From positions 171,591 through 235,590 of the forward strand of contig JAFPXD010000007.1 of NCBI GenBank assembly GCA_017394835.1: DNA of 64,000 nucleotides, written 5' to 3'. Below the pieces are notes generated by a model that saw only the letters and a list, made by a program, of their open reading frames with translations, ran no database searches and was not told where the DNA came from. The stretch comes from Clostridia bacterium (GTDB taxonomy: Bacteria; Bacillota; Clostridia; Christensenellales; CAG-138). Shown here piece after piece: positions 1 to 30,515 of this stretch. Position numbers and translations under genes: made by a program. The stretch's first letter is position 1. The number at the start of each line of letters is the position of its first letter.

Positions 1-564
1 GTGCTCGTCGATGGACGGGATGTGCGCTCCTACGATCCCAAGGAGTTGAGAAGGAAGATAGGCGTGGTCCCGCAGAAGGCGGCGCTCTTCAAGGGCACCA
101 TCCGCGAAAACCTGCTCTGGGGCTGCGAGACGGCTTGCGATGAGGAGCTCATGCGCGCCGTGCGCCTGGCTCAGGCGGAGGATATAGTCGAAAAGAAGGG
201 CGGCCTCGACGGGATCATAGAGCAGGGCGGCCGCAACCTTTCGGGCGGGCAGAAGCAGAGGCTCACGATCGCGCGCGCGCTCGTCGGGAGCCCCGAAATA
301 CTGATACTCGACGATTCCTCCTCCGCGCTCGATACCGTTACGGACGCCGCGCTCCGGCGCGCGCTCCAAAGCCTTGACAATGCGCCGACCGTGTTCATCG
401 TCTCTCAAAGGACGGGCTCCATCCGCCGCGCGGATATGATCGCGGTGCTTGAAGAAGGGCGCGTCGCGGGCATGGGCTCCCATGATGAGCTCCTTGAAAA
501 CTGCCCTGTTTATAAGGAAATTTACGATTCCCAGTACGCGGGCGGGGAGGTGAGCGCAGTATGA
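1..564 (+). CDS. ABC transporter ATP-binding/permease protein, C-terminal ATPase part (5' end cut by window edge)
   Basis: The ORF is open from base 1. It has the ABC signature LSGGQKQR and Walker B ILILDDSSSALD. Its stop overlaps the next start (ATGA at 561-564). Confidence 0.9.
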   Translation: MLVDGRDVRSYDPKELRRKIGVVPQKAALFKGTIRENLLWGCETACDEELMRAVRLAQAEDIVEKKGGLDGIIEQGGRNLSGGQKQRLTIARALVGSPEILILDDSSSALDTVTDAALRRALQSLDNAPTVFIVSQRTGSIRRADMIAVLEEGRVAGMGSHDELLENCPVYKEIYDSQYAGGEVSAV

Positions 565-5268: not shown

Positions 5269-8091
5269 ATGGGCAAGAGCATTGATGAATGGAAGATGGG
5301 CGATCCCATGATAAACGAGGGGGATTACTGGCAGGATCCCGATTACGTTCCCGCGGATCCCGAAAAGGCGGAGCTTGTGAAGAAGCTTGCCGAAATGATA
5401 ACCGACCGCGTAAAGAAAAAGCTTTTCCACAAGATCAATCACCGCGATCCCGAATACTGGATACTTGACATGATCCTCAACAAGGAGCAGGTCAAATTCC
5501 TCCTGAATTTCAAAAAGACGAGGGTGCCCTATTCCGTGCCCGAGCTTGCCGAAATGAACGGCATGAGCATTGAGGATACGCAGAAGATGATAGAGCGCCT
5601 GCGCTGGATAGGCGTCATCGAGCAGAACCGCGCCAAAACCCCCGATAAGCACCTGCAGTACGAGCTTCCCATATTCGTTCCCGGCAGCGCGGAGTTCATG
5701 ATGATGCAGGACAGGCTGACGGATGAATTCCCCCAGCTCGCGACCTTCTTCAACCTCATGACCCAGATACCTCTCGCGGGGCTCACACAGCTCGTTCCCC
5801 CCGGCGGCGCGGGCATAGGCATGCACGTTATCCCCGTCGAAAAGGCGATAAAGGCCGAAAGCCGCAGCGTGCCCGTGGAGCATCTTTCGAGATGGATAGA
5901 TATGTACGATAAATTCGGCATATCCGAATGCTCCTGCCGCAAGCAGCAGGCCATGCGCGGCGAGGGCTCCGGCGAGATCTGCGGCAATTACTGCATCGGC
6001 GTGGGCGATATGGCCGAGTATATGGACGACCGCGGCATAGGCCACTACGTTTCAAAGGAGGAGGTCTATGAGATTCTGGAGCGCGCGGAGCGTCACGGCT
6101 ACGTCCATCAGATAACCAATATAGACGGCGAGGATAAGATAGTTGCCATCTGCAACTGCGCTCCCGGCGTGTGCAACGCGATCCGCACCTCGCAGCTCTT
6201 CAACACCCCCAATATGTCCGCCTCCGCCTACCGCGCGCACGTCGAAAAGGAAAAGTGCGTCGCCTGCGGCAAGTGCGTGGAGGTATGCCCCGTGGGCGCG
6301 GCAAAGCTGGGTCAGAAGCTCTGCCGTAAGGACGGCAGCGAGGTGAAGTACCCCAAAACGCAGCTCCCCAACGGCCGCAAATGGGGCCCCGATAAATGGA
6401 ATTACAATTACCGTGACGACGCGAAGATCAACTGCTACGATACGGGCACCGCTCCCTGCAAGACCGCCTGCCCCGTGCACCTCTCCGTTCAGGGCTATAT
6501 AAAGATGGCAGCCGAGGGCAGGTACGACGAGGCGCTTCGGCTCATCAAGCAGGATAACCCCCTGCCCATGATCTGCGGCGCGATCTGCAACCGCCGCTGC
6601 GAGGAAGCCTGCACGAGGGGCACCGTCGATCAGCCCCTTGCGATAGACGAGATAAAGAAGTTCATCGCCTCGCTCGATCTGAACAGTGAGAAGCGCTATA
6701 TCCCCCTCTGCGAAAAGCACGACGGAGGCATGTGGGGCGATGAATTCAAGGTGGCCGTCATCGGCTCCGGCCCCGCGGGCCTTTCCGCCGCATACTTTTT
6801 AAGGCGCGACGGCTACCCCGTGACCGTATTCGAAAAGGAAGAACGCGCGGGCGGCATGCTGGAGCACGGCATCCCCTCATACCGTCTTGAAAAGGACGTA
6901 ATGGCCGCCGAGATAGACGTTATCCGCGAAATGGGCGTCGAATTCGAATTCGGCGTAGAGGTCGGAAAGGACGTGACCATCGAAGAGCTCCGCCGCCGGG
7001 GCTATAAGGCGTTCTTCATTGCGATAGGCATGCAGGGCGGCAGGCTTGCGGGCGTTCCCGGCGAGGACGCCGAGGGCGTTGAAACGGGAGTCGATTTCCT
7101 CCGCCGCATCAATAAGGATCATTCCGTTAAGCTCGGTGGCAAAACCATAGTCGTAGGCGGCGGAAACGTCGCGATAGACGTCGCGGGCAGCGCTCTCAGA
7201 GCGGGCTCCGAGACCGTCACGATGTACTGCCTTGAGCAGTTTGACGAGATGCCCGCCTCAAAGGATGAGGTCGAAGAGGCCCTTGAGGACGGCGTAAAGC
7301 TCGAAAACGGCTGGGGCCCCAAGGAGGTCGTAAAGGAAAACGGCCGCGTCAAGGCTGTCGTGTTCAAAAAATGCACCCGCGTTTATGATGAAAATCATCG
7401 CTTCGCCCCGCAGTATGACGAAAACGATACCGTCATCGTCCCCTGCGATAACCTCCTGCTTTCGATAGGCCAGAGCGCGGTATGGGGCGAGCTTTTGAAG
7501 GGCACGAAGGTCGAATTGAAGCCCAACGGCACCGTCGTAGCCGATCCCGTAACACGCCAGACCGCCGAGCCCGATATTTTCGTGGGCGGCGACGTGTTCA
7601 CCGGCGCGCGCTTTGCGATAGACGCGATAGCGGGCGGCCGCGAAGGCGCGGTCTCTATAAACCGCTTCGTGCATCCCGGCAACAGCCTGACTATCGCGAG
7701 GGACAGACGCGAATTCATAGAACTCGATAAGGATGACATCGCCGATCCCTCCGGGATGGAGAGCTTCGACAATGCCTCCCGCCAGATCCCCGGCAGGAAG
7801 GCGGGAAGGGCGAGCGCGACCTTCGAGGATCTTCGCCTCACCTTCACCGAGGAGCAGGTCAAAAAGGAGGCCAAGCGCTGCCTCGGCTGCGGCGCTACGA
7901 CCGTCGATGTGAACCGCTGCATAGGCTGCGGCCTCTGCACGACCAAGTGCGAGTTCGACGCGATACATCTGACCCGCGACGTTCCCGCCGCGAGCAATAT
8001 GTACAGGTCCGAGGATAAGGTAAAGGCGCTCCTGCCCTATATGGCAAAGCGCGCTATAAAGATAGTGCTCAAAAAAACGGAAGATGAATAA
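5269..8091 (+). CDS. Multidomain Fe-S / FAD-dependent oxidoreductase (GltD-like NAD(P)H-flavin core, two ferredoxin-type domains, uncharacterised Cys-rich N-terminal 340 aa)
   Basis: GGAGG precedes ATG 5269 (the track ORF starts at 5170). Ferredoxin motifs are CVACGKCVEVCPVGA and RCIGCGLCTTKCEFDA. The GltD-type N-terminal Fe-S segment is CKTACPVH..ICGAICNRRCEEACTRG. Rossmann motifs are VAVIGSGPAGLSAAYFL..VTVFEKEERAGG and IVVGGGNVAID. Confidence 0.75.
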   Translation: MGKSIDEWKMGDPMINEGDYWQDPDYVPADPEKAELVKKLAEMITDRVKKKLFHKINHRDPEYWILDMILNKEQVKFLLNFKKTRVPYSVPELAEMNGMSIEDTQKMIERLRWIGVIEQNRAKTPDKHLQYELPIFVPGSAEFMMMQDRLTDEFPQLATFFNLMTQIPLAGLTQLVPPGGAGIGMHVIPVEKAIKAESRSVPVEHLSRWIDMYDKFGISECSCRKQQAMRGEGSGEICGNYCIGVGDMAEYMDDRGIGHYVSKEEVYEILERAERHGYVHQITNIDGEDKIVAICNCAPGVCNAIRTSQLFNTPNMSASAYRAHVEKEKCVACGKCVEVCPVGAAKLGQKLCRKDGSEVKYPKTQLPNGRKWGPDKWNYNYRDDAKINCYDTGTAPCKTACPVHLSVQGYIKMAAEGRYDEALRLIKQDNPLPMICGAICNRRCEEACTRGTVDQPLAIDEIKKFIASLDLNSEKRYIPLCEKHDGGMWGDEFKVAVIGSGPAGLSAAYFLRRDGYPVTVFEKEERAGGMLEHGIPSYRLEKDVMAAEIDVIREMGVEFEFGVEVGKDVTIEELRRRGYKAFFIAIGMQGGRLAGVPGEDAEGVETGVDFLRRINKDHSVKLGGKTIVVGGGNVAIDVAGSALRAGSETVTMYCLEQFDEMPASKDEVEEALEDGVKLENGWGPKEVVKENGRVKAVVFKKCTRVYDENHRFAPQYDENDTVIVPCDNLLLSIGQSAVWGELLKGTKVELKPNGTVVADPVTRQTAEPDIFVGGDVFTGARFAIDAIAGGREGAVSINRFVHPGNSLTIARDRREFIELDKDDIADPSGMESFDNASRQIPGRKAGRASATFEDLRLTFTEEQVKKEAKRCLGCGATTVDVNRCIGCGLCTTKCEFDAIHLTRDVPAASNMYRSEDKVKALLPYMAKRAIKIVLKKTEDE

Positions 8092-18913: not shown

Positions 18914-19140
18914 ACCACAACCGCCCGGAAATCGCCACCGCCATCATGCGGGGATCAAAAAAACGTCCCTTGCGCTCCGCGCGGCGTCTGACCGGGGCGG
19001 ACTGCGGGCCAAGGTCAACGCCCGCAAGCGGTCGATGGGACTTGTTTTTGCACGATGCCTTGTATTCATATTGATTCTCCTTGTAATTTGATTATGAAAA
19101 GGAAAGGCGCCCGCTTGCGCGAGCGCTTCGAGTCTTTGTT

Positions 19141-19199
19141 TATACCCGCTTGGGTATAACGACGAATGTTCAGCACACATTTATACCATTTCGGGTATA
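19141..19199. promoter_or_regulatory. Two TATACC-Nx-GGTATA dyads upstream of the hip-like operon (candidate HipB operators)
   Basis: The dyads are tataccc-gctt-gggtata (19141-19158) and tatacc-atttcg-ggtata (19182-19199). A third half-site, gggtata, lies at 19234-19240. Confidence 0.45.
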
Positions 19200-19215: not shown

Positions 19216-19244
19216 TTGACATTACACCTTAAAGGGTATAAAAT
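19216..19244 (+). promoter_or_regulatory. Sigma-70-type promoter of the hip-like operon
   Basis: TTGACA at 19216-19221, a 17-nt spacer, then TAAAAT at 19239-19244. Confidence 0.5.
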
Positions 19245-19277
19245 AGTTGCATAATTTGATTTATGCGAGGGCATACT

Positions 19278-19487
19278 ATGAACAAGATAGCTCAATTTAT
19301 TAAGGAGAGCCGCAAGCAGGCCGGGCTCACGCAGGAGGAGTTTGCACTGCGCTCCGGGCTCGGGCTCAGATTCGTGCGCGAGCTTGAGCAGGGCAAATCG
19401 ACGGTACGCATGGACAAGGTCAATATCGCGCTCGGTATGTTCGGCTATGAGGCTGTCCCGGGCAAAACGGAAAGGAGCGAGGAATGA
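19278..19487 (+). CDS. hipB: XRE-family HTH protein (HipB-like)
   Basis: The HTH is LTQEEFALRSGLGLRFVRELEQGK. GAGGG precedes ATG 19278 (the track start is 19263). The stop overlaps the next start. Confidence 0.75.
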   Translation: MNKIAQFIKESRKQAGLTQEEFALRSGLGLRFVRELEQGKSTVRMDKVNIALGMFGYEAVPGKTERSEE

Positions 19488-19939
19488 ACATGACATTGGA
19501 TGAATTCCGAATTGCTCACAGTAAAATCATAGCATTGTATCAAGGCCTCGAATTCAATCTGAAGAGGATCTGCTCCATTCTGAGTGATAAAGGCTTTATT
19601 GCAAGCATGGATGACCTTGAACGTGACAGCATGGGCAGCGTGATCCGAGAGCTCGTCAAGCTTACAAAGGATAATGATACCCTTCGTCTTTCCGATACTG
19701 CATACGAGGTGCTGAACAAGTTCCGCGAGAAGCGCAACTATTGGTGCCATCAGTGCTATCTTGATATTTGCGTAAAAAAAGACGCCCAGAGGCGCGAAGT
19801 ACTCAAGGCGGGAAGAAGTGAAGCGATAGGGCATATGCTTATAGACGAGACCTGCGAACTTGAAGCATTCGGTGCGGAACTTGAGGAGTTGTACTTTACT
19901 CTAACTCGAAAGATATTTGATTTACGGAGGAACGCCTGA
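19484..19939 (+). CDS. Hypothetical 151-aa protein with HEPN-type RNxxxH motif
   Basis: FREKRNYWCHQ contains an Rx4H (RNYWCH) motif in a predicted all-helical protein of minimal-HEPN size. The gene overlaps both neighbours (ATGA / TGATG). Confidence 0.5.
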   Translation: MNMTLDEFRIAHSKIIALYQGLEFNLKRICSILSDKGFIASMDDLERDSMGSVIRELVKLTKDNDTLRLSDTAYEVLNKFREKRNYWCHQCYLDICVKKDAQRREVLKAGRSEAIGHMLIDETCELEAFGAELEELYFTLTRKIFDLRRNA

Positions 19940-20277
19940 TGAACACCTTCAGGACCGCTTACATTTACGTTCGCGACAGCTTCGCCGGGCTCCTCTCGGA
20001 GACCGACGAGGGCTATATCTTCACATACGATCCTGCCTATCTGTCCGCTCCAAATGCGTCCGCCGTGTCGCTGACGATGCCGCTGACAAAAAAGCCGTAT
20101 GTCTCGAAAACGATGTTCCCGTTCTTCGACGGGCTCGTTCCCGAAGGCTGGCTGCTCGAAGTCGTCAGCCGCAACTGGAAGCTCGATCCTCAGGACCGCT
20201 TCGGGCTGCTGCTCGTCGCCTGCCGCGACGGTATCGGCAATGTGAGCGTCAAGCCCAGATCGGAGGTGACTGAATGA
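19939..20277 (+). CDS. hipS: HipA N-terminal-subdomain protein (HipS-like)
   Basis: 112 aa: AGLLSETDEGYIFTYDPAYL..FPFFDGLVPEGW is typical of the HipA N-terminal / coupling domain encoded as a separate ORF. Confidence 0.7.
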   Translation: MNTFRTAYIYVRDSFAGLLSETDEGYIFTYDPAYLSAPNASAVSLTMPLTKKPYVSKTMFPFFDGLVPEGWLLEVVSRNWKLDPQDRFGLLLVACRDGIGNVSVKPRSEVTE

Positions 20278-21227
20278 ACTGCCTTTGCTGCGGGAAACCG
20301 CTTGAACCCAATACCGAACACGGATGGCACGACAGATGCATAAAGAAGTTCTTCGGGACCACGAAGCTTCCGCTGATCGAGCTTGACGAGGAATCGCTTT
20401 CCGTACTCGTTGAAAAGAGCACGGACAAGGGCTTTACCGTGCCGGGAGTGCAGAAGAAGCTTTCACTCCATCTCCATTCAGGCCGCGGACAGCAGCCCCG
20501 CCTTACGCTCGTGGACTATCCGACCGGCTACATACTGAAGCCTCAGGTCGAAGCCTTCACGGCGCTCCCGGAGTCCGAGCATCTTGTAATGCAGATGGCG
20601 GCGCACGTCGGGATCAAGACGGTCCCGCACGCTCTCATAAAGGCCGAGAGCGGATACGCTTTCATTACAAAGCGCGTCGATCGTATCAAGGATAAAAGCG
20701 GCATGAAAAAGCTTGCAATGGAGGACTTCTGCCAGCTGGACGAAAGGCTGACGCAGGATAAATACAAGGGCTCGTATGAGCGCTGCGCGAAGCTTATTAA
20801 GAAGTATTCGTCGATCCCGGCGCTCGATATGGCGGAGCTTTTCCTGCGGCTGGTCTTCTCCTTCGCCGTCGGCAATTCAGATATGCACCTCAAGAATTTC
20901 TCGCTCATAGAGACAGCTCCCGAAAGCGGCGTTTACGTTCTTTCTCCGGCTTACGACCTGCTCCCGGTCAATCTGGTCATGCCGGAGGATAAGGAGCAGT
21001 TCGCCCTGCTGATGAACGGCAGGAAGGCCAATCTTCACCGAAAGGACTTCCTTATCTTTGCAGATACCGCGGGCATACCCGAAAAGGCCGCGAACGATTT
21101 ACTGGGCAGCGTCGTCGCCGCGCTTCCCGGGTTTATCGCGGATGCGGAAAGCTCGCTGCTGCCGGATGACATGAAAGCGGGCTTGATAGCGCTGATGGAG
21201 GATAGGTGCGGCGCAATCAAAGCGTGA
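20274..21227 (+). CDS. hipT: HipA-family Ser/Thr kinase core (HipT-like)
   Basis: It has the N-terminal Cys motif CLCCGKPL..HDRCIKKFFG, the P-loop-like GVQKKLS, the catalytic VGNSDMHLKNFSL and the Mg-binding SPAYDLLPV. Confidence 0.8.
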   Translation: MNCLCCGKPLEPNTEHGWHDRCIKKFFGTTKLPLIELDEESLSVLVEKSTDKGFTVPGVQKKLSLHLHSGRGQQPRLTLVDYPTGYILKPQVEAFTALPESEHLVMQMAAHVGIKTVPHALIKAESGYAFITKRVDRIKDKSGMKKLAMEDFCQLDERLTQDKYKGSYERCAKLIKKYSSIPALDMAELFLRLVFSFAVGNSDMHLKNFSLIETAPESGVYVLSPAYDLLPVNLVMPEDKEQFALLMNGRKANLHRKDFLIFADTAGIPEKAANDLLGSVVAALPGFIADAESSLLPDDMKAGLIALMEDRCGAIKA

Positions 21228-21365
21228 TCACCTGATCAAATCGATCACCGAACTATTTCCGATAGAAAGAGCGCCCGCACAAGCGAGCGCTCAGACCACG
21301 GACAAAGCCCGCGATTTTGCGGGCTTTGTTGCATATATCAGTTGTTGAAATACGGTCAAGAGCTT

Positions 21366-22276: not shown

Positions 22277-23554
22277 ATGGCAATTTATAAACCGAGGGTG
22301 ATCGATGAGGCGATCGCTCATCGTTTGAGAAATAAAGGGGCGATACTGGTGGAAGGCGCAAAATGGTGCGGTAAAACGACCACCTGCGAACAGCATGCGG
22401 CAAGCATCCTTTATATGAGCGATCCCGACAGGGTGAGGCAAAATCTGCAGCTTGCCGATATAAGCCCGCGTTCGCTGCTTCAGGGCGAAACGCCTCGTCT
22501 TATTGACGAATGGCAGATGGCTCCGAAGCTTTGGGATGCAGTGCGTTTCGAAGCGGATCACCGTGACGGCTTCGGGCATTTCCTTTTGACCGGCTCCGCA
22601 GTCCCGGCGGATCTTGAGCAGGTGCATCATACCGGCACCGGCAGATTCGCATGGATCAGAATGAGGCCGATGAGCCTTTACGAATCCGGCGAATCCTCCG
22701 GCGCTGTCAGCCTCGGTGCGCTGTTCTCCGAAGGCGACATGCCGATTTTCGCGGAGAACACGGCAACACTTGAAGACATCGCATTTCTGATCTGCCGCGG
22801 CGGATGGCCGCAGGCAACTTTCCTTGAGGGCGAAGACGCCCTTGTGCAGTCCTTCGACTACCTTGATGCAGTTGTGAAATCCGATATCAGCCGCGTGGAC
22901 GGCGTTTCGCGCAATGAGAACCGTGCGCGTCTTTTAATGCGCTCTCTGGCAAGGCATCAGGGCACGCAGGCTCCGAACACCACCATCTGCGAGGATATCA
23001 ACGTCAGCGACGATATGGAGCTGAGCAAAGATACCGTGGTTTCATACACCAACGCGCTGAAAAAGATATTCGTTATCGAGGACTGTCCCGCATGGAGCCC
23101 GAATCTCCGATCTAAAACGGCGATTCGCACCTCCGATACCCGCTATTTCGTGGATCCTTCCATTGCAACGGCCGCTCTCGGCGTCGGTCCCGGCGACCTT
23201 TTGAACGATCTGGAGACCTGCGGCCTGTTCTTTGAAACGCTCTGCATCCGCGATCTGCGCGTTTATGCCGAGTCGATGGACGGCAGCGTGTACCATTTCC
23301 GCACCAAGGAAGGCTTGGAATGCGACGCGGTCATACATCTGCGCAACGGCAGCTACGGCCTTGTCGAGATCAAGCTCGGAGGGGATAAGCTTATCGAGGA
23401 GGGCGCGCATACGCTTAAGGCAGTTGCCGACAAGATCGACACCTCCAAGATGAAAGAACCGTCGTTCCTTATGGTGCTGACCGGAACTTCTCCCTACGCC
23501 TACAGGCGCGAGGACGGAGTTTGTGTCGTGCCGATAACGACACTAAAGAACTGA
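22277..23554 (+). CDS. AAA-type ATPase (AAA_14/DUF4143-like architecture)
   Basis: It has the Walker A VEGAKWCGKTTT and a Walker-B-like FLLTGS. The size (425 aa) and C-terminal region fit DUF4143 ATPases by recollection. Confidence 0.6.
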   Translation: MAIYKPRVIDEAIAHRLRNKGAILVEGAKWCGKTTTCEQHAASILYMSDPDRVRQNLQLADISPRSLLQGETPRLIDEWQMAPKLWDAVRFEADHRDGFGHFLLTGSAVPADLEQVHHTGTGRFAWIRMRPMSLYESGESSGAVSLGALFSEGDMPIFAENTATLEDIAFLICRGGWPQATFLEGEDALVQSFDYLDAVVKSDISRVDGVSRNENRARLLMRSLARHQGTQAPNTTICEDINVSDDMELSKDTVVSYTNALKKIFVIEDCPAWSPNLRSKTAIRTSDTRYFVDPSIATAALGVGPGDLLNDLETCGLFFETLCIRDLRVYAESMDGSVYHFRTKEGLECDAVIHLRNGSYGLVEIKLGGDKLIEEGAHTLKAVADKIDTSKMKEPSFLMVLTGTSPYAYRREDGVCVVPITTLKN

Positions 23555-23610
23555 GCGAATGATCGTCGCACAGCATGAACATATCACGAAGGATTTATAA
23601 GGAATAAACT

Positions 23611-26361
23611 ATGACACCCGAAGAAAGAGCCCGACAACTTATTGACGCTCGCCTTGAACAGTCCGGCTGGGTATTGCAGGATTTGCGCAGCGTTAATCCC
23701 ATGGCGTCGCTCGGCGTGGCGGTAAGGGAATACCCCACCAGCACCGGGCCGGTCGACTACGCCCTTTTTGTCGGCGGCAAACCGGTCGGTGTGATCGAGG
23801 CAAAGAGGGATGATCTCGGTGAAAACATCACCGTGGTCGAAGGTCAATCCGGCCGCTATGCAAACAGCACTTTCAGATACATCACAACCGATTATAATAT
23901 CCGCTTTGCGTATGAGGCGACCGGACAGATCACGCGGTTCACGGATTACAGCGATATCAAATACCGTTCCCGCCGTGTGTTTTCGTTCCACAGGCCGGAA
24001 ACTCTGCAGGCGCTCCTTTCAAAGCCCGATACGATCCGCAATAATATGAAGCGCTTCCCGGTCTTCGATACGACCGGCTTCCGCAAATGCCAGATCACGG
24101 CGATCCAAAACCTCGATGCTTCCTTTGCGGAAAACCGCCCCAAGGCGTTGGTGCAGATGGCGACCGGCGCGGGCAAGACGTTTACCGCAATCACGGCGGC
24201 ATACCGTCTTTTGAAATTCGGAAAGATGCGCCGCATACTGTTCCTCGTTGATACCAAGTCCCTTGGCGAACAGGCCGAGCGCGAGTTCCTTGCCTACACT
24301 CCGAACGACGATAATCGCTCGTTTGCCCAGCTTTACGGCGTGCGCCGCCTGAACAGCTCCTATATCCCGAACGACGTTCAGATCTGCATCAGCACAATTC
24401 AGCGTATGTATTCGATCCTGAAGGGCGAGGAAATGGACGAATCGGCGGAGGAAGAATCCCTCTTCGAGCAGAAAGGCGCAGATTCCCAGCCCGCAAAAGA
24501 GGTCGTCTATAACGAAAAGTATCCCCCGGAGTTCTTCGACTGCATAATCGTCGATGAGTGTCACCGATCTATTTACAATGTCTGGAATCAGGTGCTTGAA
24601 TACTTCGACGCCTTTATCATCGGTCTGACCGCAACGCCGGACAAGCGCACCTATGCGTTTTTCAATCAGAATATCGTCAGCGAGTATTCCCGCGAGCAGG
24701 CCATCATCGACGGCGTCAACGTCGGTGAAGACATCTTCCTGATCGAGACCGACGTCACCAGGAACGGCGCTCACATAATGAAGCAGCAGATCGAATACCG
24801 CGACCGTCTGACCCGTGCAAAACGCTGGAAGCAGATGGATGAGGATATGGATTACACCGCTTCCAACATGGATCGGGACGTGGTCAATCCAAGCCAGATC
24901 CGCACCGTTATCCGCACCTTCAAGGAGTGCCTGCCGACGCAGCTTTTCCCGCATCGTCACGAGGTGCCGAAAACGCTGATATTCGCAAAGACCGACAGTC
25001 ATGCGGACGACATCATTCAGATCGTGCGCGAGGAGTTCGGCGAGGGCAACGAGTTCTGTCAAAAGATCACCTGTCAGGCGGACCGCCCGGAGACCGTGCT
25101 CAGCGCCTTCCGCAACGATTATTATCCCCGCATAGCCGTCACCGTCGATATGATCGCCACCGGCACGGACGTCAAGCCCATCGAGTGCCTTATCTTCATG
25201 CGCGACGTTCGCAGCAAGAACTATTTCGAGCAGATGAAGGGCCGCGGTACCCGCACGCTCGGCAAGGACGATCTGCAGAAGGTCACGCCCTCCGCCACGG
25301 AGAACAAGGACCATTTCGTTATCGTGGACGCTGTCGGCGTTACCAAATCCAGAAAGACCGAGACCCGCACTCTGGAGCGCAAGCCCTCCGTCAGCATGAA
25401 GGAGCTGATGCTCAACGTGGCGATGGGCGCAAAGGACGGGAATACCCTCACTTCGCTTGCGAACCGCGTTATCCGTTTGAACAGTCAGATGACCGACAGG
25501 GAGCGCAGTGAATTCAGCTCCGCCGTCGGCAGCAGCGCGGGCGTTATAGCACAGCGGCTTCTGGACGTCTTCGATCCGGACGTCGTTTCTTTGAAGGCCG
25601 GAGTCGATCTTTCAGACGATCACGAGCCCACCGAGGACGAGCGGCGCCGCATGGACGAGGTGAAAATAGAGCTCGTCAAGGAGGCTGTGCAGCCGTTCTA
25701 TGCTCCCGAAGTCCGCGATTACATCGAAAACGTGCGCCGCAGCCATGAGCAGGTGATCGATTCCGTCAATATCGATGCCGTGCTTTTTGCGGGATTCGAT
25801 GCGGACAAGCAGGCGAATGCCGACAGGATCATAAAGACCTTCCGCGAGTTCATAGAGGAAAACAAGGACGAGATACTTGCCCTGCGCATCGTTTACAATC
25901 AGCGGTATAAGGATCGTCCCATGGCGATCGCCCGGCTCAAGGCGCTGTATGAAAAACTGAAAGCGCATAACATAACCGTTGACCGCCTGTGGGACTGCTA
26001 TGCCATCAAAAAGCCGGAGAAGGTCAGGCGGGGCACGGTTTCGCAGCTCACCGACCTTATCTCGATCATACGCTTCGAGATGGGCTATGCCGATAACCTT
26101 GCGCCCTTTGCGGACAGGGTGAACTATAACTTCATGCAGTGGACGCTGCGCCGCAACGCCGGCAGCGTGCACTTTACCGACGAGCAGATGGAGTGGCTGC
26201 GACTGATAAAGGATCATATCGCCGTATCCCTCAGCATCGAGCCGGAGGATCTGGACCTCAGCCCCTTTGACAGGAAGGGCGGCCTTGGCAGGTTCTATGA
26301 TGTGTTCGGCGCGGAGTATGAAAAGATTTTGTGGGAAATGAATGTAGAGTTGGTGGCTTAG
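23611..26361 (+). CDS. hsdR: Type I restriction enzyme R subunit (locus 1)
   Basis: It has the N-terminal RQLIDARLEQSGW nuclease-domain start, MATGAGKT (Walker A), IVDECHRS (DEAD/DECH box), QMKGRGTR (motif VI) and a long helical C-terminal domain. Confidence 0.9.
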   Translation: MTPEERARQLIDARLEQSGWVLQDLRSVNPMASLGVAVREYPTSTGPVDYALFVGGKPVGVIEAKRDDLGENITVVEGQSGRYANSTFRYITTDYNIRFAYEATGQITRFTDYSDIKYRSRRVFSFHRPETLQALLSKPDTIRNNMKRFPVFDTTGFRKCQITAIQNLDASFAENRPKALVQMATGAGKTFTAITAAYRLLKFGKMRRILFLVDTKSLGEQAEREFLAYTPNDDNRSFAQLYGVRRLNSSYIPNDVQICISTIQRMYSILKGEEMDESAEEESLFEQKGADSQPAKEVVYNEKYPPEFFDCIIVDECHRSIYNVWNQVLEYFDAFIIGLTATPDKRTYAFFNQNIVSEYSREQAIIDGVNVGEDIFLIETDVTRNGAHIMKQQIEYRDRLTRAKRWKQMDEDMDYTASNMDRDVVNPSQIRTVIRTFKECLPTQLFPHRHEVPKTLIFAKTDSHADDIIQIVREEFGEGNEFCQKITCQADRPETVLSAFRNDYYPRIAVTVDMIATGTDVKPIECLIFMRDVRSKNYFEQMKGRGTRTLGKDDLQKVTPSATENKDHFVIVDAVGVTKSRKTETRTLERKPSVSMKELMLNVAMGAKDGNTLTSLANRVIRLNSQMTDRERSEFSSAVGSSAGVIAQRLLDVFDPDVVSLKAGVDLSDDHEPTEDERRRMDEVKIELVKEAVQPFYAPEVRDYIENVRRSHEQVIDSVNIDAVLFAGFDADKQANADRIIKTFREFIEENKDEILALRIVYNQRYKDRPMAIARLKALYEKLKAHNITVDRLWDCYAIKKPEKVRRGTVSQLTDLISIIRFEMGYADNLAPFADRVNYNFMQWTLRRNAGSVHFTDEQMEWLRLIKDHIAVSLSIEPEDLDLSPFDRKGGLGRFYDVFGAEYEKILWEMNVELVA

Positions 26362-26371
26362 GAGATAGAAA

Positions 26372-27562
26372 ATGAAAATGATACGACTTGGAGATATTGC
26401 TACAATCTATAATGGTAACAGTATCAATGCCACAGTAAAAAAAGAAAAATACATGAAAAACGTTCCAGGATGGAACTACATTGGGACTAAGGATGTTGGA
26501 TTCGACGGAACAATATCATACAATACCGGAGTAATAATTCCTTATTTCGAAACCGGATTCAGAATTGCGCCTGCCGGAAGCATATTTGTTTGTTCCGAGG
26601 GTGGAAGCGCAGGCAAGAAGACTGCAATTGTTAATGAAGATGTATGCTTTGGAAACAAGTTATTTGCAATTGTAAATGACAAGGGAAAGTTTCTTCCGAA
26701 GTACCTTTTTTACTATTCAAGATTTGAGAGGTTCAGAGAACAGTTCAGGCTGTTGTCAACATCTCTCATGGGTGGCATTTCTTCAAAAAACTTTGCAGCA
26801 ATTGAGGTTCCTCTATATGATTTGCCCGATCAGGAGCGCATCGTTGCCAGGATTGAGGAAATGTTCTCCCAGCTTGACGCCGGTGTGGAAACGCTGAAGA
26901 AAACAAAAGCACAGCTTGCTGTGTATCGGCAGGCCGTGCTGAAAGAGGCGTTTGAGAATTGTATTGATAGCATCACCATGGCCAGCGTTGCTACAATGAT
27001 TGATCCGCAGCCAAGTCATAGAACACCACCTGAGTTTGAAAATGGGATTCCTTATATTGGCATTGGAGATATAGACTACACCGGAAAAACTATCCGGTTC
27101 AAAGATGCACGCAAAGTGAATCCAGTCGTGCATGAAGAACAATTGCAGCGTTATACATTGCGCGAAGGCGACTTTGTAATGGGCAAAATTGGAACCATAG
27201 GGAAGCCTTTCCGGTTGCCACTTCCGCAGAACTACACCTTATCCGCTAATGTAATTCTGATTCAACCGGATGCAGAAAGAATCAATCCCGAATACCTGTT
27301 CTGGCAGTTTTCCTCACCGTTAATCACAGAGCAGCTTATGGAAGGAAAAAACGAAACCAGTCAACCAGCGTTTGGTATTCAGAAAGCCCGACTGCTCCAG
27401 ATAAAAATGTGTTCTCCAGAGGACCAAGACAGAATTGTTTACGATATTCGAGAGAAAATCTCTGTATGCGAAAATATTGAGCAAACGGTGACTTTGTCAT
27501 TACAGCAGGCAGAAGCCATGCGGCAAAGCATTCTGAAAGAAGCATTTGAGGGGAGTTTATAA
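26372..27562 (+). CDS. hsdS: Type I R-M specificity subunit (locus 1)
   Basis: It has two target-recognition domains separated by conserved helices (..LDAGVETLKKTKAQLAVYRQAVLKEAFE.. and ..LQQAEAMRQSILKEAFEGSL). Confidence 0.9.
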   Translation: MKMIRLGDIATIYNGNSINATVKKEKYMKNVPGWNYIGTKDVGFDGTISYNTGVIIPYFETGFRIAPAGSIFVCSEGGSAGKKTAIVNEDVCFGNKLFAIVNDKGKFLPKYLFYYSRFERFREQFRLLSTSLMGGISSKNFAAIEVPLYDLPDQERIVARIEEMFSQLDAGVETLKKTKAQLAVYRQAVLKEAFENCIDSITMASVATMIDPQPSHRTPPEFENGIPYIGIGDIDYTGKTIRFKDARKVNPVVHEEQLQRYTLREGDFVMGKIGTIGKPFRLPLPQNYTLSANVILIQPDAERINPEYLFWQFSSPLITEQLMEGKNETSQPAFGIQKARLLQIKMCSPEDQDRIVYDIREKISVCENIEQTVTLSLQQAEAMRQSILKEAFEGSL

Positions 27563-27563
27563 A

Positions 27564-28283
27564 ATGATAATAAGAAAAGAAACTACATACCGCAAAAGGC
27601 TGGTTATCTCTCAAAATAGAATTATAGAGTTGGACAGTATTCTTGAAAAATACTGTGAAAGAATACGCTACAAGGCAACGACAGACCAAGGTACATCCCT
27701 CGCTTTTGAAGATCGCGATGAACTCTTGAAGTATGATAATTTTAAGAATGGAAAAACCATAAGCCTCGATGTTTCAGGTGAATCGAAGGATCGCTCGACT
27801 TCGATAGAAATCACCATAGCTCCAACATTTAAACTTAAGGACGAGACTGCTCGATGCAGATATGAGTTTTCGGACAATGATAAAGAAAGGCTGTTTGTTG
27901 ATGATTGGACAACCTTTCTTAAAAAGTGCACAGAGTATCAAATCAGCTATACTATCTGCAAAGTTGCAACATTCGTGTTTTGGCTTTCACTTGGAGTTTA
28001 TTTCCTTGTTCGATTCTTTAATACGAAGTTGAGGGATTTATCATATTATCCATTATTGTTTATACTAATGTTTTCGTTTATCAAAACTGTTACACATGAC
28101 AAAACAATATGGGATAGGGTGTTCCCTCCCGCTGTGTTCCCTTGGGGAGAAGAGAGGGAGAAAAACCTAAAAAGAATCAATATTCGCTCTCAACTGTTCT
28201 GGGCGGTAGTTATCCCAACCGCTATCAGTATCGCTTTTGAAATTGTATCCATTATCAGGATGGCGGGGACGCCAAAGCCCTAA
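27564..28283 (+). CDS. Hypothetical membrane protein embedded in R-M locus 1 (soluble N-terminal domain + 3 C-terminal TM helices)
   Basis: ATG 27564 lies 1 nt after the hsdS stop, with GAGGGGAG upstream. The hydrophobic segments are VATFVFWLSLGVYFLVRFF, YYPLLFILMFSFIKTV and LFWAVVIPTAISIAFEIVSII. Confidence 0.65.
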   Translation: MIIRKETTYRKRLVISQNRIIELDSILEKYCERIRYKATTDQGTSLAFEDRDELLKYDNFKNGKTISLDVSGESKDRSTSIEITIAPTFKLKDETARCRYEFSDNDKERLFVDDWTTFLKKCTEYQISYTICKVATFVFWLSLGVYFLVRFFNTKLRDLSYYPLLFILMFSFIKTVTHDKTIWDRVFPPAVFPWGEEREKNLKRINIRSQLFWAVVIPTAISIAFEIVSIIRMAGTPKP

Positions 28284-28342
28284 GCGATCAGCGCTGGTTT
28301 TTATAAGCCAAAGCCCATCTATATGTCATTAAGGAGAAAACG

Positions 28343-29044
28343 ATGAAAGAGTATGTAGCATACTATTTTGCGTTCATGGACCTCTTGGGGTTCAAAGAAA
28401 TTGTGAAAACAAGCACATGCGATGAAATTGCTGAGATTTTCGATGAAGCGAAAAAGAGATTTGTAATAAATCAAGAAATCGGTGATAAGAGCGTACCTGT
28501 TGTATCACCGCAAGATATTCATTACTATGTAATGTCTGACAGCGTATGTATCTTTATCAGGGATAACATTAAATCAGCGCTTCCGGTTTTGACTTGGCTC
28601 TGTCTGAATTTTCAGGTTAGAATGTTGTGTCAGAAGAGGCCGGTTTTTGTTCGCGGAAGTATCGTCCGAGGGAAAGCGTTCGAAGAGCAGAACGTCTTGT
28701 TCGGCCCTGCAATGGTAGAAGCTTACCTTAGAGCTGAGAAGCTTGCTCAATATCCCCGGATCATTATTCCTATGGATTTATGCGAAGAGATCACCGACAC
28801 GACGGATAAAGCCTTCATGAATGGATTCACACATTTAGAGCAGGATGGGTTTTTCGTAATCAATTATTTGGATTATTTTAGTTTCCATGCTTCTGCAAAA
28901 GAGCACAGAGAGGGAGTAATTAATTATGTGAATCATATGATCAATGATTCTTTAGATCAATCTGTTCGTGATAAGTATTTGTACGTGCAATTCTGGTTGG
29001 ACTACTATACCAAGCAACGGGAGGCAGAAGCACATGAGCAATGA
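28343..29044 (+). CDS. Nucleotidyl-cyclase-fold (class III cyclase-like) protein embedded in R-M locus 1
   Basis: RBS AAGGAG. The ordered motifs are YYFAFMDLLGFKEIV (FxDxxGF), YYVMSDSVCIF (second Asp) and VFVRGSIVRGKAF..LFGPAMVEAYLRAEKLAQYPRIIIP. There is no GGDEF motif. The 3' end overlaps hsdM by 11 nt. Confidence 0.55.
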   Translation: MKEYVAYYFAFMDLLGFKEIVKTSTCDEIAEIFDEAKKRFVINQEIGDKSVPVVSPQDIHYYVMSDSVCIFIRDNIKSALPVLTWLCLNFQVRMLCQKRPVFVRGSIVRGKAFEEQNVLFGPAMVEAYLRAEKLAQYPRIIIPMDLCEEITDTTDKAFMNGFTHLEQDGFFVINYLDYFSFHASAKEHREGVINYVNHMINDSLDQSVRDKYLYVQFWLDYYTKQREAEAHEQ

Positions 29045-30515
29045 AACCTCTATTATCTCAAGAGTTTGGGGGATGTGTAACCCTCTGCGTGACGACGGCG
29101 TTTCCTACGGCGATTATCTGGAGCAGCTTACCTATCTCATCTTTCTTAAAATGTCGGATGAGTATTCCAAGCCGCCGTATAACAAAAAGACCGGCATTCC
29201 CGAGGGCTGCGGCTGGACGGATATGAACACCCTCACCGGCGCGGAGTTGGAAGCGCAGTACAAAAAGACGCTTGAAACGCTTGGCGGACAGGGCGGCATA
29301 CTCGGCCAGATATTCCAAGGGGCGATCAACAAGGTCTCAAACGCCGCGATACTCTACCGCATCGTGCAGATGATCGACCGCGAAAAGTGGGTATCCATGT
29401 CCTCGGACGTAAAGGGCGAGATCTACGAGGGTCTGCTGCAGAAGAACGCCGAGGACGTGAAATCCGGCGCAGGGCAGTACTTCACGCCCCGCGCGCTGAT
29501 ACAGGCAATGGTCGCCTGCATCCGTCCGGAGCCTATGAAGACCATCGCGGATCCCTGCTGCGGCAGCGGCGGCTTCTTCCTCGCGGCGCAGGCGTTCCTT
29601 GCCGATCCCGCTAATTATTCGCTCGACCGCGATCAGAAGGAGTTTTTGAAGAACGGCACGTTCTACGGAAATGAGCTTGTCGCCTCCACCTTCAAGCTCT
29701 GCCTGATGAATCTGTATCTGCACAACATCGGCGATATTTACGGCGCCGTGCCCGTTACCCGCGGGGATTCGCTGCTGACCGATCCGGGCTACCGCGTGGA
29801 TTACGTGCTGACAAACCCGCCGTTCGGCAAGAAATCCTCCCTCACGTTCACCAACGAGGAAGGCGAGCAGGAGGAGGAAGACCTCGTCTATAACCGTCAG
29901 GATTTCTGGACGACAAGCAGCAATAAGCAGCTCAATTTCGTACAGCACATCAATACGATATTGAAAGCGACGGGCAAGGCCGCCGTAGTCGTGCCGGATA
30001 ATGTGCTGTTCGAGGGCGGCGCGGGCGAGATCGTCCGCAAAAAGCTGCTGCAGACCACCGACCTGCATACGATCCTGCGTCTGCCCACCGGCATCTTCTA
30101 CAAGCCCGGCGTAAAGGCGAACGTCATTTTCTTTGACAAGCGCCCCGCCGGCCCCGAAATGCAGACTAAGACCGTTTGGATCTATGATTTCCGCACCAAC
30201 GTCCACTTCACGCTGAAGCAGAACCCGATGCAGTATTCCGATCTGCAGGAATTCATCGCCTGCTATCACCCGGAGAACCGCTTTGAGCGCACCGAAACAT
30301 GGAGCGAGGATAATCCCGACGGCCGCTGGCGCAAGTTCGATATTGCGGAAATACTTGGGCGGGACAAGACCAGCCTCGATATCTTCTGGATCAAGGACAA
30401 ATCCCTTGCGGATCTGGATAATCTGCCTTCGCCCGACGTGCTCGCCGATGAGATCATCGAAAACCTGCAAAGCGCGCTGGAAAGCTTCCGGGAGCTGAAA
30501 GCCCAGCTGAAATAA
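29034..30515 (+). CDS. hsdM: Type I R-M DNA methyltransferase subunit (locus 1)
   Basis: The start is moved to ATG 29034, preceded by GGGAGG. SAM motif I is IADPCCGSGGFF and motif IV is LTNPPFGKK. Confidence 0.9.
   Translation: MSNETSIISRVWGMCNPLRDDGVSYGDYLEQLTYLIFLKMSDEYSKPPYNKKTGIPEGCGWTDMNTLTGAELEAQYKKTLETLGGQGGILGQIFQGAINKVSNAAILYRIVQMIDREKWVSMSSDVKGEIYEGLLQKNAEDVKSGAGQYFTPRALIQAMVACIRPEPMKTIADPCCGSGGFFLAAQAFLADPANYSLDRDQKEFLKNGTFYGNELVASTFKLCLMNLYLHNIGDIYGAVPVTRGDSLLTDPGYRVDYVLTNPPFGKKSSLTFTNEEGEQEEEDLVYNRQDFWTTSSNKQLNFVQHINTILKATGKAAVVVPDNVLFEGGAGEIVRKKLLQTTDLHTILRLPTGIFYKPGVKANVIFFDKRPAGPEMQTKTVWIYDFRTNVHFTLKQNPMQYSDLQEFIACYHPENRFERTETWSEDNPDGRWRKFDIAEILGRDKTSLDIFWIKDKSLADLDNLPSPDVLADEIIENLQSALESFRELKAQLK

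Follow-up and report, generated by a model that had tools for sequence, protein, structure and literature searches.

In this work we analyse a four-gene operon in a 64,000-nucleotide (nt) stretch of DNA from a Clostridia bacterium (assembly GCA_017394835.1, contig JAFPXD010000007.1, positions 171,591 to 235,590 of the forward strand). The whole stretch is called the window below, and positions are counted from its first letter. The operon is a HipBST-type kinase toxin-antitoxin (TA) module with an additional gene, called X here, between hipB and hipS. On the whole we favour, with modest confidence, the reading that this is a conventional HipBST module carrying a recently inserted and independently acting, probably HEPN-type passenger, and not a fourth subunit. 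X resembles a passenger because operons nearly identical to this one do without it; these X-less siblings, together with a protein family lying almost wholly outside hip operons, argue against an integrated subunit. A HipBST operon with a gene inserted from a new, likely HEPN, family is likely the novelty of this locus. The X-bearing hipBST operons are polymorphic and narrowly distributed, being known from a few contigs of rumen and gut Clostridia.

The four open reading frames (ORFs) of the operon are all on the + strand and are chained by start/stop overlaps, ATGA at 19484-19487, TGATG at 19937-19941 and ATGA at 20274-20277, the second frame being read as 19484-19939 (Table 1). This agrees with the original prediction, made from the letters of the DNA, and its labels of XRE helix-turn-helix (HTH), HipS-like and HipT-like proteins are borne out by domain searches (HTH_3, Couple_hipA and HipA_C). 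The strings that it quoted are also present, namely VGNSDMHLKNFSL and SPAYDLLPV in HipT and FREKRNYWCHQ in X. HipB reaches 71.2 bits with the couple_hipB model TIGR03070, just under the cutoff of 71.65. Among solved structures, HipS matches that of Legionella pneumophila (Lp; 7vkb_B, E 2.3e-17) and that of Escherichia coli O127 (7ab3_B, E 8e-12), and HipT is closest to HipT(Lp) (8ezr_B, E 2.9e-40; structures 8ezr and 7vkb), with the E. coli O127 HipT at E 2e-18. Since the closest structure-sequence matches are the L. pneumophila HipT and HipS, the module is placed by sequence in the HipBST(Lp)-like subclade. Its separate XRE HipB, its HipS of about 100 amino acids (aa) and its kinase core with intact motifs and no N-subdomain 1 are those of a HipBST system; what departs from it is the contiguous hipB-hipS-hipT order, in which a 455-bp gene is interposed. 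By analogy with known systems, HipT is presumed to be toxic, HipS to neutralise it and HipB to autoregulate the operon. The split kinase of HipBST type proposed earlier is thus retained, while its naming as a tRNA-synthetase kinase was extrapolated from E. coli O127 and is an assumption, because the kinase is nearer to HipT of L. pneumophila than to the TrpS kinase of O127.

To describe the origin of X, we then compare the operon with its relatives. A scan of metagenome contigs gives more than 567 HipT relatives, of which the best 80 were examined. In these 80 closest hipBST loci the four-gene order occurs only twice (L086 and L088), while hipS comes directly after hipB in 74; three further loci are truncated and one has a split hipS. 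The window HipB is 72-84% identical to the HipB proteins of the 74 X-less loci. One X-less sibling, L087, has HipB, HipS and HipT 96%, 94% and 96% identical to those of the window, and the HipT of another, L089, is 78% identical. Aligned with these two, the insert is 455 bp long and flanked by a 6-bp direct repeat, ATGAAC. By this alignment ATG 19484, in the upstream copy, is the former hipS start codon, followed by one further codon of the old gene, and the downstream copy contains the present hipS start. The X-less junction reads GAGGAATGAACACCTTC, and the X-bearing one reads GAGGAATGAAC/ATGACA...CCTGATGAAC/ACCTTC, with slashes at the junctions; in a longer alignment, the X-less operon has ...GGAGCGAGGAATGAACACCTTCAGG... 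where the window has ...GGAGCGAGGAATGAAC/ATGACATTGGAT...(X)...GGAGGAACGCCTGATGAAC/ACCTTCAGG... The 3' end of X provides a GGAGGA site for hipS. As to the start of X itself, four sibling loci carry ATAAGT where the window has its first ATGAAC, and their X begins with the ATG that follows (MTLDEF...); therefore ATG 19490, giving 149 aa, is the probable conserved start. By eye, the hipB 3' end ACGGAAAGGAGCGAGGAATGAAC (19471-19489) and the X 3' end ACGGAGGAACGCCTGATGAAC (19922-19944) resemble an imperfect direct repeat of about 21 nt, which could be a decayed longer target duplication.

The composition and divergence of X differ from those of its neighbours as well. Its G+C content is 45.6% (51% at third codon positions), against 56-58% (71-77%) for hipB, hipS and hipT. 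Between L086, which has X, and L087, which lacks it, the 100-nt bins on both flanks of X are 100% identical. Between L086 and L088, both with X, the synonymous divergence (dS) is 0 for X and 1.56 for hipT, and identity drops from 100% to about 70% inside hipS and hipT; an identical X amid diverged hipT genes shows that the segment of hipB, X and the 5' part of hipS recombined among diverged hipBST alleles. X is under purifying selection, with a median pairwise ratio of nonsynonymous to synonymous divergence of 0.25 compared with 0.11 for hipS and hipT, these values coming from few sequences of low divergence. Judged by these sequence comparisons, X is a recent, narrow, polymorphic foreign insertion and not a core component. 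The earlier idea of a tripartite system that acquired a fourth component therefore stands as far as a recent polymorphic insertion is concerned, but not for an integrated subunit, since near-identical operons are X-less.

The distribution of the X family points in the same direction. A genome scan gives 97 X loci, nearly all in Clostridia (Oscillospiraceae, Acutalibacteraceae, Ruminococcus and Lachnospiraceae). In 85 loci with X homologues, Hip genes are found within 8 kb only in the five with at least 86% identity (L003-L007), and none of the roughly 75 distant homologues has Hip neighbours. These distant homologues are found in quite different surroundings. One lies after hsdM-hsdS, 25 nt past hsdS (L001, 6001-6411), and others stand beside HsdR-like genes of 1053-1055 aa (L045 and L072), with X 4 nt before hsdR in L072 (64-522). 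In two loci X lies between engB/ysxC and valS, at -4 nt after engB (L002, 2420-2809; L027, 8007-8393), and in L170-L173 it begins 1 nt after a small RelA_SpoT alarmone synthetase gene, near a PDC-S01-like ATPase (L170 X at 6001-6441). This synthetase may be either a toxSAS or a housekeeping enzyme, its best match being a housekeeping-type YjbM/RelQ model below cutoff. In L174 (6007-6432) a Y-family polymerase gene ends 11 nt before X, a 145-aa gene starts 17 nt behind it and a relaxase gene follows downstream, and in L166-L169 it is located in prophage- or element-like regions with integrases. Such repeated placement between co-oriented genes may reflect junction-targeted insertion.

In 20 Lachnospiraceae loci (L041-L081; for example L042, 7896-9722), an element near tuf that has an integrase gene carries X and then an XRE HTH gene of about 160 aa. 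In nine of them the next gene encodes a 233-aa Hypoth_Ymh protein (PF09509, HEPN), so that two HEPN-type genes stand around one HTH gene. The X-linked XRE neighbour of 162 aa was considered as a HipB and rejected, with merely generic HTH similarity (24% over 41 aa). Across the family there are 23 HTH neighbours and one fusion of X with an N-terminal XRE HTH (P0026). Two other fusions are observed, to a domain of about 235 aa without assignment (P0037) and to a domain of about 290 aa whose GDFN...DH motifs recall endonuclease/exonuclease/phosphatase proteins, for which Pfam gave no confirmation (P0052). A nucleotidyltransferase gene, as would be expected for an MNT antitoxin, is present neither within the operon nor in the neighbourhood of the homologues. 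With tblastn, X has no match in the plasmids of PLSDB or the phages of INPHARED; among viral contigs there is a single IMG/VR locus, resembling a conjugative element.

We then consider what kind of protein X is. A word-indexed search finds 10 relatives, and a full HMMER profile search over 1.84 billion representatives finds 299 clusters (at 50% identity) with E<=1e-3. X matches no Pfam, NCBIfam, PADLOC or PHROG family, and in a search of a large protein database with the profile of the family alignment the members are unannotated or "hypothetical protein", with no bridge to a named family; we also found no description of the family in the literature. In 81 diverse single-domain members, five residues are each conserved in 80: Q18 and E21 of the first helix, and R82, N83 and H87, the last three as R-N-x3-H (149-aa numbering; Q20, E23, R84, N85 and H89 when counted from ATG 19484). 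A K or R follows at E+4 in 62 of the 81 (Ex3[K/R]). The expected number of RxxxxH strings per 151 aa in translations of the window is about 0.43, and that of RNxxxH is 0.014; the RxxxxH string by itself is thus not beyond chance, and it is the family conservation that gives it weight. The arginine and histidine of RNYWCH, singled out in the original prediction, are therefore conserved family-wide. An AlphaFold2 model built from the family alignment has a predicted local distance difference test score (pLDDT) of 95.9 and a predicted template modelling score (pTM) of 0.88, and its DSSP assignment gives helices at 3-31, 36-43, 48-61 and 69-87 (plus 89-92), a beta-hairpin at 95-105 and a helix at 109-148. 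Since the helix at 69-87 carries R82 to H87, R-N-x3-H is predicted to close the penultimate helix. By the definition of PMC3710099, a HEPN domain ends its helix-3 with Rx4-6H, in which R is followed by a polar residue (N, D or H), and often has an Ex3[KR] motif; X has R-N-x3-H with a polar residue after R, and in the predicted model its motif ends the penultimate helix.

Weak similarities also point to HEPN families. When 110 members are scanned singly against Pfam, the weak matches found most often are to HEPN_Swt1 (18 members, best 9.8e-4), DUF4145 (18), HEPN_Cthe2314 (seven, best 2.4e-4), HEPN_Apea (five), Abi_2 (two) and HepT-like_2 (two), and the family consensus sequence weakly matches HEPN_Swt1, HEPN_Cthe2314 and HepT-like_2. 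In PADLOC the weak matches of the family are Csx1, CARF_HEPN_mCpol (1.8e-5), Cas13a, Cas13-ApeA and Csm6. We regard it as likely that X belongs to the HEPN superfamily, and as somewhat less likely that it is an active RNase. The HEPN assignment made earlier for the 151-aa protein agrees with where the weak profile matches point, but its fold was not confirmed.

Upstream of the operon, the three operator-like palindromes are spaced exactly 41 bp apart and the third overlaps the promoter; by analogy with the hipBA and hipBST operators, they are candidate HipB binding sites. The promoter is the sole strong + strand site upstream of the operon, and no comparable + strand promoter is present inside it. 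Downstream of hipT, the hairpin has an RNA folding energy of -21.9 kcal/mol (z -3.7; none of 200 shuffles is equally stable) and probably marks the end of the transcription unit, the terminator role being a putative one because the T-run is weak. The natural reading would be that the four overlapping genes form one operon with a single HipB-regulated transcript, and support is found for the earlier view that the additional gene sits between hipB and hipS and shares their promoter, which carries the operator-like palindromes.

Combining these results, we propose the following scenario. A conventional and presumably autoregulated HipBST operon, belonging to the L. pneumophila-like subclade and situated within a defence island of gut or rumen Clostridia, has recently received a single foreign gene precisely at the hipB/hipS junction. 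X thereby took over the ribosome-binding site and start codon of hipS, and brought for hipS both a new GGAGGA site and the TGATG overlap, which would allow all four genes to be translated from one HipB-controlled transcript. X would most likely be a minimal divergent HEPN-superfamily protein, probably a dimeric metal-independent RNase using R84, N85 and H89 with Q20 and E23 nearby. It would act alone, as a passenger or accessory effector borrowing the hip promoter, and not as a structural or regulatory subunit of HipBST; its independence from HipS and HipT, like the binding of HipB to the palindromes, is supposed here. The anatomy of the operon, the insertion with its polymorphism, the distribution of the family, its conserved residues and the purifying selection are shown by the data, whereas the HEPN homology, the RNase activity and the co-transcription are deductions.

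Several observations weigh against this scenario. Concerning the HEPN assignment, all HEPN profile matches of X lie below curated thresholds; phmmer with X and a search with the family profile find nothing among the PDB sequences. Foldseek likewise gives nothing but non-significant helical-bundle matches for both X models against PDB and for the first one against BFVD: no PDB match reaches E<=0.001, the best being E 0.6, and the HEPN toxin 7bxo_G appears at E 2.9 with the first model. For the good model, no HEPN chain is among the top PDB matches, and so the four-helix up-down HEPN fold is not recovered. As helical bundles are hard for Foldseek, this weakens the assignment to HEPN without excluding it, and leaves it likely but unproven. 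An hhalign comparison of the family with the Hypoth_Ymh HEPN proteins of related loci gives a probability of 0.5%, a value that carries little information, since the Hypoth_Ymh alignment is very shallow (effective number of sequences 1.3). The conserved E of X lies in the first helix, whereas the HEPN description places it in helix-2. Concerning the passenger role, a free minimal HEPN RNase is expected to need an antitoxin, though none for X is evident in the operon. X is also selected and has spread among diverged hipBST alleles with its hip flanks, which could also mean that it is of use specifically there. In addition, two other operons, L114 and L158, whose HipT is 64-68% identical to that of the window, have an unrelated gene, for an HNH endonuclease of 178-193 aa, at the same hipB/hipS junction (PF01844 E 2.7e-7, PtuB-like 5.8e-8; L114 3093-3674, L158 2848-3384), a hint that a functional theme, and not hitch-hiking alone, is at work.

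In a rival reading, X is integrated with the kinase: as a HEPN RNase kept latent by the HipB/HipS/HipT complex, or by HipB, it would be released with HipT, for example in abortive infection, so that kinase-mediated translation arrest and RNA cleavage act together. This would be analogous to the PrrC-type RNases, which are guarded by type I restriction-modification (R-M) enzymes. The translational coupling of X between a regulator gene and an antitoxin gene, the lack of a separate antitoxin, the purifying selection and the spread across diverged alleles, the HNH gene at the same junction, the recurrent XRE HTH links and the location within a defence island all speak for such a dual effector, as do the published cases of HEPN genes lying inside R-M operons (PMC3710099). 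Nevertheless we consider it unlikely: operons without X have HipS and HipT that are 94-96% identical, and HipST has therefore not become adapted to X; some 75 distant homologues do without Hip genes altogether; and X is present in just two of the 80 nearest hipBST loci. A related and slightly more doubtful idea is that the hipB/hipS junction is a recurrent landing site, where unrelated nuclease genes, X in one lineage and HNH in L114 and L158, come under HipB control and are coupled to the kinase. If true, this would amount to a composite "kinase plus nuclease" module for abortive infection, in which X, defining a new minimal HEPN family, would be kept silent by the Hip complex or by an XRE-type partner and so need no antitoxin of its own.

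A different explanation takes X as a selfish cassette, a mobile single gene that inserts or recombines exactly between co-oriented genes, with its conserved polar residues serving propagation or an unrelated function and with no bearing on TA biology. The repeated position of the homologues between co-oriented genes, overlapping these or separated from them by a few nt, the 6-bp repeat around the insert, the polymorphic presence with identical flanks and the identical copies within diverged operons would all fit, and X may be a new kind of single-gene element invading operon junctions; the gene of L114 at the same site is moreover an HNH gene, a type typical of free-standing homing endonucleases. 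We judge this improbable, since no transposase, integrase or terminal inverted repeat accompanies X in the hip operon, the 6-bp repeat could be mere microhomology, and ordinary homologous recombination through the hipB and hipS flanks explains the spread among hip alleles; to our knowledge, no mobility mechanism exists for HEPN-like proteins. It is more improbable still that X is not HEPN at all but another helical fold, for instance a metal- or ligand-binding or regulatory one using H12, C88 and C91, with R-N-x3-H as a coincidental resemblance. That no HEPN structure matches so confident a model and that the family matches are all sub-threshold would be expected then, and the window protein has a CxxC, with weak zinc-ribbon or zinc-finger matches in a few members. 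However, many members have other residues instead of the two cysteines of WCHQC: V, A or T at position 86 in 39 of 81, and a residue other than Cys at position 89 in 28 of 81. A metal site (CxxC or His) was for this reason rejected as common to the family. The five near-invariant residues correspond exactly to the HEPN type, and most of the commonest weak matches, in two independent libraries, are to HEPN families. Nor does X show similarity to HipB-type or HipS-type proteins, as which it was also considered. The passenger reading hence remains the one we prefer.

Compared with known systems, the closest is the HipBST of L. pneumophila (Lpg2368-2370; PDB 7vkb and 8ezr; PMC9325769, PMC10653801), which like the window operon has an XRE HipB, a HipS of about 100 aa and a HipT of about 315 aa. 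Its P-loop, GN(E/S)DMHLKNFSLI and SPAYDLL align with the window HipT, in which GVQKKLS, the catalytic GNSDMHLKNFSLI and SPAYDLL are all conserved. The window operon differs in having an unrelated 149-aa gene between hipB and hipS, in its Clostridia host, and in a Cys-rich CxCC...HxxC stretch at the HipT N-terminus. This stretch (C3-x-C5-C6 ... H19-x2-C22, window 20280-20339) is present in all sibling operons, is outside the region aligned to L. pneumophila HipT (query residues 54-313), and from its residues may be a small zinc knuckle. The HipBST(Lp)-like subclade reportedly has a kinase target other than those of the characterised HipA and HipT toxins, the target of HipT(Lp) itself being unknown (PMC10653801). 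The HipBST of E. coli O127:H6 (PDB 7ab3-5; PMC6581861, PMC10627512) shares the tricistronic logic and the overlapping coding regions; there HipS is the antitoxin, HipT the kinase toxin with TrpS as its target, and HipB the DNA-binding partner (PMC6581861, PMC10627512). It is more distant and lacks an inserted gene, and its TrpS target cannot be assumed for the window HipT.

As for X, the minimal HEPN toxins such as HepT of HEPN-MNT and the HEPN genes of R-M and abortive infection (Abi) systems, namely DUF4145, Abi2/AbiD/F, Swt1-like, Cthe_2314 and ApeA (PMC3710099), are similar in their length of about 140 aa and all-helical make-up, in an R-N-x3-H ending the penultimate helix (in X, as predicted), and in being near type I R-M systems and mobile elements; an acidic residue in Ex3[K/R] is found as well, although in another helix of X. 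The weak profile matches of X fall on just these families. Unlike them, X has no MNT partner, has a Q/E pair in the first helix, and has a beta-hairpin between the motif helix and the last helix. The survey of Gerdes et al. (2021; PMC8262856) describes ten operon organisations of Hip kinases, with partners such as HipS, HipN with HIRAN, Stl-like and resolvase-like proteins; these ten include no nuclease or HEPN partner, the words "HEPN" and "nuclease" do not occur in its text, and in the parts consulted the order hipB-X-hipS-hipT is not among the organisations described.

The exact junctions and the siblings with and without X show a TA operon gaining an effector-like gene with its translational coupling kept, and the pair L086 and L087 is a natural experiment on whether TA and defence operons are expression platforms for passenger genes. 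The unannotated family of about 300 clusters from gut and rumen Clostridia, with its catalytic-looking signature of five residues, is probably a new minimal HEPN RNase family. Cooperation between nuclease and kinase, if it occurs, would make this operon a new composite architecture for Hip systems.

Table 1. Features of the X-bearing hipBST operon and its surroundings in the window
Feature	Position	Strand	Description
Operator-like palindromes (three)	19140-19158, 19181-19199, 19222-19240	.	19 nt, TTATACC-N5-GGGTATA; repeat search
Promoter, sigma-70-type	19216-19244	+	TTGACA, 17-nt spacer, TAAAAT; 11/12 consensus matches
hipB-like gene	19263-19487	+	74-aa XRE HTH protein; HTH_3 E 8e-08; TIGR03070 couple_hipB E 4.9e-20
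Left junction, upstream ATGAAC	19484-19489	+	former hipS start codon and one codon, by comparison with X-less L087 and L089
X, inserted gene	19490-19939	+	149 aa, all-helical (151 aa from 19484); unannotated HEPN-like family
Helix-1 motif of X	19541-19564	+	Q-x2-E-x3-K (QGLEFNLK); Q and E near-invariant
FREKRNYWCHQ of X	19721-19753	+	residues 80-90
R-N-Y-W-C-H of X	19733-19750	+	candidate HEPN Rx4H catalytic motif, R84 to H89 (151-aa numbering); C-terminal end of penultimate helix
hipS-like gene	19939-20277	+	112 aa, HipA N-subdomain 1 only; presumed antitoxin; Couple_hipA E 1.9e-25
Right junction, downstream ATGAAC	19939-19944	+	present hipS start, by comparison with X-less siblings
hipT-like gene	20274-21227	+	317-aa HipA_C kinase core; HipA_C E 9.8e-46
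P-loop of HipT	20442-20465	+	PGVQKKLS
Catalytic region of HipT	20868-20906	+	residues 199-211, VGNSDMHLKNFSL; catalytic loop GNSDMHLKN within
SPAYDLLPV of HipT	20943-20969	+	residues 224-232; Mg-binding AYD within
Terminator-like hairpin	21301-21330	+	13-bp stem, then CUUUGUUG; 3' of hipT
Defence island (context)	22277-30515	+	downstream of operon
AAA_14/DUF4143 gene	22277-23554	+	PADLOC candidate PDC-S01, E 1.5e-59
Type I R-M operon	hsdR 23611-26361; hsdS 26372-27562; hsdM 28968-30515	+	two ORFs without assignment between hsdS and hsdM

Finally, two observations concern the defence island downstream of the operon. A gene of the AAA_14 and DUF4143 kind is also located directly upstream of the RelA_SpoT gene that precedes the X homologue in L170, L171 and L173. 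In the type I R-M operon, the two ORFs between hsdS and hsdM, 27546-28283 (with C-terminal transmembrane helices) and 28343-29044, have no Pfam, NCBIfam or PADLOC match. Together with hsdS they have a G+C content of 38-43%, compared with 55-56% for hsdR and hsdM; hsdS and the two ORFs may be an exchanged cassette, or the ORFs may be an accessory pair.

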